Positions 3,870-48,414 of a stretch of 64,000 nt of DNA are shown in pieces. The position numbers were made by a program, and so were the translations under genes. Each line of letters begins with the position of its first letter. The first letter of the stretch is position 1. Under the pieces are notes generated by a model. That model saw only the letters and a list, made by a program, of their open reading frames with translations, was not told the DNA's origin and did not search any database. The stretch is from a phage: NCBI GenBank assembly GCA_012628545.1, contig GCA_012628545.1_3035.1, one strand, 5' to 3'.

Positions 3870-5280
<1,411 letters not shown>

Positions 5281-44088: not shown

Positions 44089-44580
44089 TTATGCATAGCG
44101 AGCTTTGCTGTAGTGTTTAATCCAACTTTCAGGAATGACTTTGTATGTTCCTAAAAATACCGCGTTGTACAGCTTAACACCGTCTTCTACCCATTGATCA
44201 GTAATGTATGCACACATAGCGCGAGTACGGTTAACAACACCTTCCTCACCTTCAGTAAATTCAAACTCATAAGGAGCAACGAACTTGATAGCTTGACCGA
44301 GTTTCCACTTAAAGTCTACACCTACATGCGAAGTATCAATCGTTTCAATTCCTTTAGCGGGAACAGCTTTCAAAAACGCAGGCTCAAGAAATTTCCATCG
44401 AACATAACCAAACTGAGGTTTAGACATTCCATCTTTAGGAATGATACGCACTTTTACTTCAGAATCTTCATCTTTAACACCATGTTTAAGCTGAATGCTT
44501 ACGACTTCAACCAATTTTCCTGCTGCCTTAGAACGGGATTTATCAGATACACGAGCAATTTCACCGATATTAATATTCAT
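44089..44580 (-). CDS. motB: putative MotB
   Basis: 163-aa ORF; assignment from length and synteny only. Confidence 0.5.
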   Translation of the reverse strand: MNINIGEIARVSDKSRSKAAGKLVEVVSIQLKHGVKDEDSEVKVRIIPKDGMSKPQFGYVRWKFLEPAFLKAVPAKGIETIDTSHVGVDFKWKLGQAIKFVAPYEFEFTEGEEGVVNRTRAMCAYITDQWVEDGVKLYNAVFLGTYKVIPESWIKHYSKARYA

Positions 44581-44653: not shown

Positions 44654-45091
44654 CTAGCTTACACGAACATTAATCACTGCGCTACGAGGAACTACAGAGT
44701 ATTCTCCAGCATGAACTACGTTCAGAAGTTCAACACCATCTTCAATCCACTGATCAGTCACCCATCCACCCACAGGATTCGCGAATGGACGACGAATATA
44801 AACTGCCTTACACAGCAGATCAGTTGGATCTTCAGGTTTTTCAATTTCTGTCAATAGACTAAAATCTTTTTCATAAATAATAAGCGGTGATACCATTCCA
44901 TAATAGTTTCTAATTTCAATATACATCATACCGATAAGAATTCCGCTATTAACACTAATAACAGTAAAAGGATATCCGCCAGTTAAACCAAGAAGTTCAC
45001 AAAACTTATTATGAGCTGTATTAGACAGTACCGAAAAATTCTTAATTTCATCAAATTTTTTCAATTGATAAACAGCATTATTTTTAATCAT
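44654..45091 (-). CDS. hypothetical protein, C-terminal module paralogous to upstream ORF
   Basis: 145-aa ORF; shares motif TDQW(I/V)EDGV(E/K)L.N.V..G.Y.V(V/I)P with ORF 44089..44580. Confidence 0.5.
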   Translation of the reverse strand: MIKNNAVYQLKKFDEIKNFSVLSNTAHNKFCELLGLTGGYPFTVISVNSGILIGMMYIEIRNYYGMVSPLIIYEKDFSLLTEIEKPEDPTDLLCKAVYIRRPFANPVGGWVTDQWIEDGVELLNVVHAGEYSVVPRSAVINVRVS

Positions 45092-45677: not shown

Positions 45678-46361
45678 TTATCGTTTTGTTGGAAGAGACA
45701 GAGGATCGCACTCTTCCTCTGACGGAGCATCTTCAAGACCCATAGCGTATCGCAAAGCATACTTCATCATCAGGATGTCTTTCGCACAGTCATGAATAGA
45801 ATCATGTGCAACGAATCCATCTAAAGTTCCCTTTGGAAGAGGACATGTGGTCATATCACGAACAAGTAGAAGTGCTTCAATTCTGGTACGAATATCACGC
45901 TGATTCCAGAATTTACACGGTTCTAACTTAAATGTGTCAAGCTCATTCTCAGATACACCATTAAGGCGTTGAATATCACGAATGAGATCGACTAAAATTG
46001 GAAAATCAAACGACATTCCACGGCACCAGCCTTGAGATTTCCAAGGATCGATATTATGCGCATTGATGTAATCATTAAATTTTACAATACCATCGATAGT
46101 GCTTACATCTTCATCTGATGGTGCAATATTTTTTCGAGCTTCAGGGGATTGATTCTTCCACCATTCGATAGTGCTTTTAGTAAAAAGACGATGTCCTTTT
46201 TGGCTTTTTAAATCAAATTTGATTTTAATGCCACGTGAAACTAATTCATCAAATGTTTCAACGACTTCTGGATTAGGGTCAAAAGCAATTACAGCCAAAT
46301 CAATAACAGCTGCTTTTTCACCACTTCCCATTGTTTCAAAATCTATAATAAAATCAAACAT
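45678..46361 (-). CDS. dexA: exonuclease A (DnaQ-like 3'-5' exonuclease)
   Basis: 227-aa ORF; T4 DexA length and synteny. Confidence 0.85.
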   Translation of the reverse strand: MFDFIIDFETMGSGEKAAVIDLAVIAFDPNPEVVETFDELVSRGIKIKFDLKSQKGHRLFTKSTIEWWKNQSPEARKNIAPSDEDVSTIDGIVKFNDYINAHNIDPWKSQGWCRGMSFDFPILVDLIRDIQRLNGVSENELDTFKLEPCKFWNQRDIRTRIEALLLVRDMTTCPLPKGTLDGFVAHDSIHDCAKDILMMKYALRYAMGLEDAPSEEECDPLSLPTKR

Positions 46362-46618
46362 TAAACTTTCCTCGCTAAATCGCGAATTTGGCCTACAGTA
46401 TAGTCTTGAATATAAACTTTATTAATAGGCTCATCAATAAATTTTGCCATAGATTCAATGTCTTTTTGTATCTCTTCAAGACTGTATACTATCTTTGAAG
46501 CTTTTTCGCGAATAGTAACATTATCAGGTCCTGGATTTTCTTGAATGACAGCTTTAACATTTGTCATAAGAGATTTAAACTGGTACCAACTTAATTCAAT
46601 CATTAATAATCGCCTCAT
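46361..46618 (-). CDS. hypothetical protein (tandem paralogue 1)
   Basis: 85-aa ORF similar to ORF 46596..46856. Confidence 0.5.
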   Translation of the reverse strand: MRRLLMIELSWYQFKSLMTNVKAVIQENPGPDNVTIREKASKIVYSLEEIQKDIESMAKFIDEPINKVYIQDYTVGQIRDLARKV

Positions 46619-46856
46619 AAAGATAGCTAATTTCGCCTAAAACGTAATCATTGATTGTAACAGTTTTCACTTCACCACAAAAGAATTCTAACGCAATTAA
46701 ATCTCGTTCAATTTCTTCTAATTGAAGCATCAACTTACTAGATTCAATTTTTACAGTTTCACGATTTTTACCATGAGCAATTTCATAAATTTCGCTAACT
46801 TTATCCTGAAGAAGATAAAACTGATCTTTAGTTATTTCCACGAATAGCTTCCTCAA
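46596..46856 (-). CDS. hypothetical protein (tandem paralogue 2)
   Basis: 86-aa ORF similar to ORF 46361..46618. Confidence 0.5.
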   Translation of the reverse strand: MRKLFVEITKDQFYLLQDKVSEIYEIAHGKNRETVKIESSKLMLQLEEIERDLIALEFFCGEVKTVTINDYVLGEISYLYEAIIND

Positions 46857-47088
46857 ATTTAATTAGTAATTTACAGACACTTTCATCTAGTGTAATTACC
46901 GTATCTGTATTACTGTGATATGATTGTTTTTCAATTCGTTTAATTGCTAATATAGTATCACTTATAAGATAAAGCTTATGAAGGAGCTCAGCTCCTGTTA
47001 CCATAACATTAAGATTATCTTGCTTATTAGTATGCTTCCTTATACCATCTATTAGACGATTTAAATATTTTGAATTGATGTTAATCAT
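46828..47088 (-). CDS. hypothetical protein
   Basis: 86-aa ORF. Confidence 0.45.
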   Translation of the reverse strand: MININSKYLNRLIDGIRKHTNKQDNLNVMVTGAELLHKLYLISDTILAIKRIEKQSYHSNTDTVITLDESVCKLLIKFEEAIRGNN

Positions 47089-47094
47089 ATAACC

Positions 47095-48414
47095 TCACAC
47101 ATAAAATACGTCATAACGACCACGGGTAACACCAACATAAAGAAGTTGTTGAGCCAATTCAGCATCTGCATAATGAATACAAGGCGTATAAATGAAAGCA
47201 CGGTCTACAGACATACCCTGAGCTTTATGGAATGTTGATGCAGGAAGTGCTTTCACTTTACTAAACTGTGATTTAGCATCCCAAAAATCACTCCACGGAG
47301 CTTTTCCGCCTTTGTTCCAATTTTTATAAGTTTCTGCCGTTTTACCTAAAAATAGGTTAAACTTATATAGCTCTTCATCAGATGAAATTATTTTAATCTT
47401 TTCACGATAATATTCATCATCGCCATAAGTTTCTACTGTTAAATCCCAATGACGAATTAAGTATTCTCCAGGAACACCACGAGCTTTAACAAAGGTTGAT
47501 GTATACTCTGCTTCTATAATACGAACTAATTGTCCATTATTAAAAATAATTTCTGACACAGGCTTTCCATCAATTTTATATGTTTTAATTAATGGTTCCT
47601 GCATTACAATAATTTCACCGACAATAAAATCTTTATCAGTTTCAAAAATCTTTTTACGAATAATGCTATTTAACTTGTCAACAGATTTATTCGTAAATGC
47701 CATTACGCGATTTTCAAACAAATCATCTAAAGATTTGACGATTGAAAAATAATTTACCATAAAATCGCGTAAAGCGGTATCACCAGTAAATCCACGTACT
47801 CCATGCCCGTCAACAACTTTATCATAAATCCACTTACCGTTACGAACGTCAGTAGCTACATCAATAATAGGAGCATTACTGCGTTTAACTTCAGTGAGTT
47901 CACACTGATAAAAATCTTTATGCGTAAAGAATGGACTGATATAAGCAGTATTTTCTCCTGGGTCAACAGGTCTAATTTGCTTATTATCACCTATTCCAAT
48001 TATAGTACACCACGGCGGGATAGTTGAAAGCAGAATTTTAAATAGCTTTCTATCATACATTGACACTTCATCGCAGATTAATACTCTGCATTTAGCTAAA
48101 TCTGGTACTTCCTTCTGCTCAAAGAGGACATTTTCTTCATATGTTACCGGGTTAATTTTGAGAATACTGTGAATAGTACTCGCTTCTTTCCCTGATAGTT
48201 TTGAAAGAATCTTTTTAGCTGCATGAGTAGGAGCTGCTAAAATAATGCCAGTTTCGCCCGTAGATATTAAGGCTTCAATGATGAACTTAGTAAGAGTAGT
48301 CTTACCAGTACCAGCAGGTCCATTAATAGTTACATGATGTTTCTTTTCTTTAATAGCCCTCATAACAATGTTAAAGGCATTTTTCTGGCCTTCAGTCAAA
48401 TCATCAAATGTCAT
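47095..48414 (-). CDS. dda: Dda DNA helicase (SF1)
   Basis: 439-aa ORF with Walker A GPAGTGKTT; T4 Dda length. Confidence 0.9.
   Translation of the reverse strand: MTFDDLTEGQKNAFNIVMRAIKEKKHHVTINGPAGTGKTTLTKFIIEALISTGETGIILAAPTHAAKKILSKLSGKEASTIHSILKINPVTYEENVLFEQKEVPDLAKCRVLICDEVSMYDRKLFKILLSTIPPWCTIIGIGDNKQIRPVDPGENTAYISPFFTHKDFYQCELTEVKRSNAPIIDVATDVRNGKWIYDKVVDGHGVRGFTGDTALRDFMVNYFSIVKSLDDLFENRVMAFTNKSVDKLNSIIRKKIFETDKDFIVGEIIVMQEPLIKTYKIDGKPVSEIIFNNGQLVRIIEAEYTSTFVKARGVPGEYLIRHWDLTVETYGDDEYYREKIKIISSDEELYKFNLFLGKTAETYKNWNKGGKAPWSDFWDAKSQFSKVKALPASTFHKAQGMSVDRAFIYTPCIHYADAELAQQLLYVGVTRGRYDVFYV

Follow-up and report, generated by a model that had tools for sequence, protein, structure and literature searches.

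The closest described system is the pair of small bacteriophage T4 genes dexA.1 and dexA.2. The paralogy of their products, DexA.1 (UniProt Y00G) and DexA.2 (Y00H), is already curated knowledge, recorded in the T4 annotation, in Pfam family PF26837 and in PHROG 1700. The Pfam name, 'Phage_T4_Y00H_G', is presumably a merger of the two UniProt names. The T4 gene table in the supplement of PMC11879866 puts both genes in phrog_1700 with function unknown, and the CRISPRi-ART knockdowns of both genes scored there as 'Not Fit', that is, with no fitness defect in the laboratory host. DexA.2 protein has been seen in T4-infected cells (PMC10097602), and a single middle-phase transcript from dda.1 to dexA.1 has been proposed for the locus, where one transcription start site was detected (bioRxiv 10.1101/2024.04.04.588121).

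The DNA analyzed here, called the window, is a stretch of 64,000 nucleotides (GenBank assembly GCA_012628545.1) from a T4-like phage (Tequatrovirus). The 2.9 kb around the small-gene array matches hundreds of Tequatrovirus genomes at 97-99% identity. All of the genes lie on the minus strand and are transcribed in the order dda, ORF3, dexA.2, dexA.1, dexA; the segment between dda and dexA is referred to below as the slot. The window DexA.1 is 95% identical to T4 NP_049630 (Y00G_BPT4) and the window DexA.2 is 98% identical to T4 NP_049631 (Y00H_BPT4). Position, strand, the 8-nt overlap, start codons and family assignment of the two genes are the same in T4 and the window phage, whereas ORF3, which the window phage carries between dexA.2 and dda, is represented in T4 only by a 12-codon remnant. 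The features of the locus are as follows.

47095..48414, minus strand: dda (DNA helicase), the upstream flank of the slot
47093..47096, minus strand: Shine-Dalgarno GAGG of ORF3, overlapping the dda stop TGA (47095-47097), read from the sequence
46828..47088, minus strand: ORF3, 86 aa, pI 8.8, hypothetical protein of the RB14ORF015 type, PHROG 4967
46851..46854, minus strand: Shine-Dalgarno GAGG of dexA.2, within the last ORF3 codons, 9 nt before the GTG at 46841
46596..46841, minus strand: dexA.2 (likely GTG start), 81 aa, pI 4.4, net charge about -9, counterpart of T4 DexA.2 (Y00H)
46613..46616, minus strand: Shine-Dalgarno GAGG of dexA.1, within the last dexA.2 codons, 9 nt before the ATG at 46603
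46361..46603, minus strand: dexA.1 (likely ATG start), 80 aa, pI 5.4, counterpart of T4 DexA.1 (Y00G)
46368..46373, minus strand: Shine-Dalgarno GAGGAA of dexA, within the last dexA.1 codons
45678..46361, minus strand: dexA (exonuclease A), the downstream flank of the slot

Within the array the ribosome-binding site of the next gene sits inside the end of the preceding gene, the classic layout of translational coupling. The ATG of ORF3, at 47088, lies 4 nt past its GAGG. A scan for promoters and terminators gave no more sites than were found in shuffled sequences, and none within the array.

A sequence-only reading of this stretch had reported three small ORFs. These are present, all on the minus strand: an 85-aa ORF at 46361-46618 and two 86-aa ORFs at 46596-46856 and 46828-47088. 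The first two are longest ORFs, beginning at ATG 46618 (dexA.1) and TTG 46856 (dexA.2). The true starts are likely to be ATG 46603 for DexA.1 and GTG 46841 for DexA.2, because GAGG lies exactly 9 nt ahead of each, because T4 and Sf25 are annotated with the same starts (for Sf25 dexA.2 with the remark 'alternate start codon GTG') and because the proteins then begin where the single-copy homologues described below begin. The GTG start also fits mass spectrometric data from T4 infection, in which lysine 5 of DexA.2, described as '9.5 kDa', was reported to carry a cGAS adduct (PMC10097602); the calculated mass of DexA.2 is 9494 Da. With the likely starts the overlaps become 14 nt (ORF3/dexA.2), 8 nt (dexA.2/dexA.1) and 1 nt (dexA.1/dexA, the dexA ATG at 46361 having one base in common with the dexA.1 TAA), which gives a cleaner gene model. 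Hence, neighboring ORFs do overlap as had been claimed, but the lengths of 23 and 29 nt given by the longest ORFs shrink to 8 and 14 nt. The same correction applies to the whole-length likeness of the two proteins from an initial 'MR.L' motif onward: the paralogy is sound, but the 'MR.L' part lies upstream of the true starts, where the extensions are alike because each reads, in another frame, the 3' end of the preceding gene, and those 3' ends are homologous.

Paralogy of the 85- and 86-aa products was verified, in that they are 32% identical over 76 residues (E 3e-11). The original observation is therefore correct and statistically solid, and it describes well-annotated T4 genes having a curated relationship. 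DexA.1 and DexA.2 match PHROG 1700 with E values of 3e-44 and 6e-49, respectively, and precomputed PF26837 assignments are on record for proteins 98-99% identical to DexA.1 and 100% identical to DexA.2. A Pfam-A release predating PF26837 gave no match for DexA.1, DexA.2 or ORF3, NCBIfam gave only sub-threshold noise (ESAT-6 and MinE at about 15 bits versus cut-offs of at least 100) and a PDB sequence search with the family profile returned coiled-coil noise and no homologue of solved structure. DexA.1 is found at 80% identity or more in 480 records. In an indexed search of 5.8 billion proteins the only relatives of DexA.1/.2 were from Tequatrovirus, Dhakavirus and a few metagenomic sources, and querying 1.84 billion representative proteins exhaustively by HMMER with a DexA.1/.2 profile gave only nine clusters, all close relatives or fragments. 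By these searches the DexA.1/.2 family is narrow, and bacterial homologues are absent.

The proposed alignment of all three proteins was thus significant for DexA.1 with DexA.2, but ORF3 showed no pairwise similarity to either protein by BLASTP. An hhalign comparison of ORF3 with DexA.1/.2 gave a probability of 0.3%, the DexA.1/.2 HMM scored ORF3 at E 2.1, and ORF3 has no match to phrog_1700, which places it outside the PF26837/PHROG 1700 family. ORF3 belongs to phrog_4967 (E 9e-59), a family restricted to Tequatrovirus, and is 100% identical to a T6 hypothetical protein of PHROG 4967 that is encoded at the equal position and annotated 'conserved in RB14, RB51; RB14ORF015'. By tblastn ORF3 was detected in 309 phage records, every match being full length and at least 88% identical; about a third of the Tequatrovirus records lack it. 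No intermediate homologues were seen beyond Tequatrovirus when tblastn matches with E values up to 10 were accepted. The relatives of ORF3 among 5.8 billion proteins form four 90%-identity clusters for which no Pfam domain is on record.

The link between ORF3 and the other two proteins came from genes that occupy the same slot in other genera. The single slot gene of phage CC31 (CC31p016) belongs to PHROG 5263 (E 3e-28), and tblastn with it retrieves the slot genes of the other genera. PHROG 5263 (Karamvirus, Jiaodavirus, Gaprivervirus, Moonvirus and Gelderlandvirus) shares with DexA.1/.2 the slot, a size of 76-84 aa and the predicted-fold neighborhood, although its members are only about 20-30% identical to the window proteins and are single-copy in those genera. 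All three window proteins match PHROG 5263, with E values of 4e-4, 2e-7 and 1.4e-5, the last being the full-length match of ORF3. An intermediate profile was made from an alignment that contained only five single-copy slot genes, from five other genera. By hhalign this profile matched DexA.1/.2 with a probability of 97.4% (E 1e-11, 76 columns) and ORF3 with a moderate probability of 46.7% (E 2e-4, 77 collinear columns). When the HMM of the same five sequences was run against the 539 ORFs of the window (all stop-to-stop ORFs of at least 40 aa in six frames over its whole length), DexA.2 scored 6.8e-10, DexA.1 2.1e-8 and ORF3 3.7e-6, the ORF3 match being full length, and the next ORF scored 0.71. 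PHROG 5263 was not among the clusters that the DexA.1/.2 profile retrieved in the exhaustive HMMER search.

The predicted folds point in the same direction. AlphaFold2 models of DexA.2 (pLDDT 93.6; E2-4, H5-24, H28-55, E60-62, H65-79) and ORF3 (pLDDT 83.5; E2-5, H6-22, H26-54, E64-67, H69-84) have the same predicted topology, beta-alpha-alpha-beta-alpha, in which the helices would form a three-helix bundle. In a Foldseek search of the BFVD viral models the best neighbors of ORF3 were small proteins of the T4-like phages Cronus, fHe-Yen9-01 and CC31 (E5DI27). ORF3 also matched the DexA.2 of phage BECP11 (TM 0.69/0.73), and TM values to slot proteins and DexA.2, all predicted models, were 0.69-0.79. 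The BFVD neighbors of DexA.2 were largely the same set, and the Sf25 copy of ORF3 was not among the best 50 DexA.2 matches. Note that antiparallel three-helix bundles, including de novo designed mini-binders (9rgv_A, 7opb_D and 7jzm_A), resemble these models in shape only (10-19% identity); the phage proteins differ from generic three-helix bundles by two added short beta strands, and no evolutionary link is implied. Moreover, the C-terminal 'EEAI..N' and the junction layout of ORF3 resemble those of DexA.2. The intermediate-family profile and the predicted folds thus indicate that ORF3 is a third, very diverged member of the DexA.1/.2 superfamily, an assignment less certain than the paralogy of DexA.1 and DexA.2. 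The link is weak by direct methods and runs through the intermediate family and predicted folds of a common type.

Taken with the gene order in relatives, this evidence argues that PHROGs 1700, 5263 and 4967 constitute one fold superfamily, of proteins of about 80 residues and 9.5 kDa, which occupies a conserved dda-to-dexA slot in 0 to 3 copies. The grouping of ORF3 (PHROG 4967) and PHROG 5263 with DexA.1/.2 may be unrecorded. The copy numbers between dda and dexA are given below.

0 copies: RB69 (Mosigvirus), in which dda and dexA are adjacent
1 copy: Dhakavirus, Karamvirus CC31, Jiaodavirus JD18, Gaprivervirus SP18, Moonvirus Merlin, Gelderlandvirus SEA1 and one metagenomic contig
2 copies: T4 and RB32
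3 copies: the window phage, T6, Sf25 and ESh26

One member is the usual slot content in most of the Tevenvirinae genera examined. The two small slot ORFs of RB49 (Krischvirus) were considered as members and rejected since they belong to other PHROGs, and Aeh1 has dexA without dda and without a slot gene. In every examined genus that has the family a member lies directly upstream of dexA, overlapping or abutting it. Such a fixed position beside dexA would fit a role linked to DexA or Dda just as well as the binder mechanism proposed below. The count across relatives, 0 to 3 family members, together with the significance of the DexA.1/DexA.2 alignment, supports the earlier description of a tandem paralogous family of unknown function.

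The history of the array was approached through a neighbor-joining tree rooted with the PHROG 5263 genes (300 bootstraps). A clade of DexA.1 and the single-copy genes of the Dhakavirus type was recovered in 288 of the 300 bootstraps; DexA.2 was sister to that clade, and the three were found together in 287. Hence, the tree that had been suggested as a check does place DexA.1 and DexA.2 with their homologues, but DexA.1 groups with the Dhakavirus-type genes rather than with DexA.2. By this topology dexA.1, like the single gene of Dhakavirus-like phages, is orthologous to the ancestral slot gene, and dexA.2 is an old and faster-diverged tandem duplicate, or a strongly accelerated one. The single Dhakavirus gene has a DexA.2-like N-terminus and a DexA.1-like remainder and so might be a DexA.2/DexA.1 recombinant. 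However, retention of an ancestral N-terminus was judged to be more likely, because metagenomic single-copy proteins have the same N-terminal pattern.

The junction is identical in T4 and RB32 and lacks about 233 nt of ORF3, leaving 12 codons, ATG-ATT-AAA...TAA, which encode MIKFEEAIRGNN and keep the GAGG and GTG of dexA.2. Because the remnant is in frame and has both ends of ORF3, the gene was probably lost in the T4 lineage rather than gained elsewhere. ORF3 is dispensable, given that T4 and RB32 lack the full gene. Among five Tequatrovirus genomes dN/dS was 0.05-0.18 for ORF3, 0.02-0.16 for dexA.2 and 0.12-0.40 for dexA.1, indicating that all three are protein-coding genes under purifying selection. 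The adjacent parts of dda and dexA gave values of about 0.01 and 0.00, respectively, at similar dS, and thus amino-acid change in the three small genes is roughly ten times that of dda and dexA.

Two other views of how the three genes are related must be weighed. Only dexA.1 and dexA.2 might be related, ORF3 being an unrelated occupant of a variable slot with a fold reached by convergence on a helical bundle. The nil direct likeness of ORF3 to DexA.1/.2 and its lack of a Pfam assignment would be as expected, three-helix bundles are very common, and the RB49 slot does take in unrelated ORFs. Convergence fits poorly, however, with a profile of other genera that ranks ORF3 third of the 539 ORFs through a collinear full-length alignment, or with the full-length PHROG 5263 match. 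It also fits poorly with a topology and element lengths that are the same in ORF3 and DexA.2, the two short strands included, with best structural neighbors that comprise DexA.2 and slot proteins from other T4-like phages, and with the DexA.2-like C-terminus and junction architecture. We therefore consider an unrelated ORF3 to be quite improbable. The second view, that the array is a recent gene-dosage amplification such as phages use against defense systems, draws on the tandem layout and on a copy number that is polymorphic among close relatives. The copies are at most 32% identical, though, a direct-repeat search found no DNA repeat at the gene spacing, the same three diverged genes are kept in 309 genomes and the Dhakavirus gene is a closer relative of DexA.1 than DexA.2 is. 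With copies so diverged, recent dosage amplification is excluded for practical purposes, and we assign it next to no probability. The earlier phrase 'locally amplified' thus holds insofar as the copies are in tandem, but not in the sense of recent amplification.

What the proteins do must be approached with some caution regarding names. Public records label DexA.1/.2 proteins as 'exonuclease', 'dextranase', 'tail sheath stabilizer' or 'major capsid domain-containing protein', and neither their sequence nor their fold backs any of these four names. An exonuclease or dextranase identity was rejected since there is no nuclease or glycoside-hydrolase domain and the predicted fold is an 80-residue helical bundle; the names 'exonuclease' and 'dextranase' appear to have spread from the gene symbol dexA.x. 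Pfam, NCBIfam and PDB sequence searches gave no signature of an enzyme or a nucleic acid-binding protein. We propose that the superfamily proteins may be small stoichiometric protein binders that resemble generic helical mini-binders and, made in the early-to-middle phase, would act as accessory modulators of host or phage factors. Duplication would then have allowed the copies to take different partners, with divergence of surface charge (pI 4.4, 5.4 and 8.8). The proposal is based on the lack of a recognizable catalytic or nucleic acid-binding motif, laboratory non-essentiality, the mini-binder look and the charge divergence. We infer this binder mechanism from negative evidence and general features. 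The account as a whole, three superfamily genes in the slot, an old duplication and putative protein-binding modulators, seems to us probable.

A more specific role is also conceivable, in which the small proteins serve DexA exonuclease or Dda helicase specifically, as cofactors or regulators (e.g., specificity or inhibitory subunits) kept in fixed proportion by translational coupling. Such a role would agree with the member found directly upstream of dexA, overlapping or abutting, in all examined genera having the family, with the window genes each bearing the ribosome-binding site of the next, and with the proposal that the four genes from dda.1 to dexA.1 are on one transcript. It is at odds with RB69, where dda and dexA are adjacent without such a gene, with the two unrelated small ORFs in the RB49 slot, and with Aeh1, where dexA is present without dda or a slot gene. 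In addition, T4 lost ORF3 without change in dda or dexA, and an obligate subunit would not usually outpace its enzyme as these small proteins do, their rate of evolution being about ten times that of DexA and Dda. We regard dedicated DexA or Dda subunits as unlikely. An extension of the binder proposal would make the slot home to a fast-evolving three-helix mini-binder family engaged in host takeover or anti-defense, with one target per paralogue, such that the copy number of 0 to 3 and the pI range of 4.4 to 8.8 reflect an arms race with the host; this extension is tentative and we rate it as rather doubtful. The more general binder account remains the one we prefer.

The discovery value of the original observation is small, since T4 and hundreds of relatives already carry annotations for the genes, and both Pfam and PHROGs record the paralogy. 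This analysis adds a gene model with corrected starts and overlaps, the assignment of ORF3 and PHROG 5263 as remote members, and a copy series running from 0 to 3. Annotators should note that the 'exonuclease' and 'dextranase' labels on DexA.1/.2 are unfounded. As three small, dispensable and fast-evolving proteins, ORF3, DexA.2 and DexA.1 are reasonable candidates for inclusion in screens for phage modulators of host proteins.

The junction between dda and dexA behaves, in the phage sequences compared, as a variable slot. In RB49 it holds two small, unrelated ORFs belonging to PHROGs 15021 and 16162, and in RB69 it holds no small ORF, only a 9-nt gap. ORF3 (compared over window 46828-47100) is absent from T4 and RB32, and the junction is identical in these two phages.

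RB49 (record L006) 1974-2385: slot with two small ORFs
RB69 (record L005) 4616-4626: slot with no small ORF
T4 (record L001, NC_000866) 2389-2430: junction lacking ORF3
RB32 (record L013) 930-975: junction lacking ORF3

What is left at the T4/RB32 junction is an in-frame mini-ORF of 12 codons, MIKFEEAIRGNN, in which codons from the two ends of ORF3 (the first two and the final ten) are joined. The Shine-Dalgarno sequence of dexA.2 and its GTG start codon survive within this remnant. The T4 lineage appears to have lost about 233 nt here by deletion. An additional 10-nt difference from the window is found at the dda stop codon. In the Shigella phage sb1 record (L015, 1-960) ORF3 is interrupted by a stop codon in place of E79, and dda is broken into three CDSs. 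The broken dda and ORF3 of sb1 are most likely sequencing errors rather than biology. This record was excluded from the dN/dS calculation.

Of the 160 columns in the PHROG 1700 profile, DexA.2 aligns to 1-80 and DexA.1 to 77-159. The 159-residue "dexA.1" protein of phage ime09 (G1FHL1) appears to be a DexA.2-DexA.1 fusion. The genes share 8 nt and are read in different frames, so fusing them requires a frameshift, which could be a genuine indel or an error of sequencing or annotation. The single-copy proteins (Dhakavirus VR5, record L003, 2501-2740; proteins P0038 and P0090-P0098) have a DexA.2-like N-terminus (TKDQFY.L), the remainder being DexA.1-like (SVYIQDYTVGQIRDL). This mixed likeness would reflect either an ancestral N-terminus kept in DexA.2 or a hybrid formed by unequal crossover. 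In the matched public records DexA.1 and DexA.2 are widely mislabeled as "exonuclease", "dextranase", "tail sheath stabilizer" or "major capsid domain-containing protein", and no support for any of these labels was found in sequence or fold.

A short distance downstream of dexA, MotB and a MotB-like protein form a second neighboring pair of paralogues.

44089-44580 and 44654-45091, minus strand: MotB/MotB-like pair

These proteins share the C-terminal motif TDQW.EDGV.L.N.V..G.Y.V.P.S (55% identity over 29 residues, E 7e-10). In T4 the position of the second gene is occupied by a shorter motB.1.

Searches of BFVD gave similarly sized proteins with a related fold from distant T4-like phages that infect Aeromonas, Acinetobacter and Erwinia.

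Aeh1: Q76YD5 and Q76YD6
phiAS5: E1A2I8 and E1A2I9
Acj9: E5EPF5 and E5EPF6
Cronus and Henu6: further fold relatives

The accession numbers are often consecutive, which suggests that the genes occur in adjacent pairs, and the Aeh1 genes do not adjoin dexA. On this basis the fold may have arisen repeatedly as tandem pairs, or at least recur in that arrangement.
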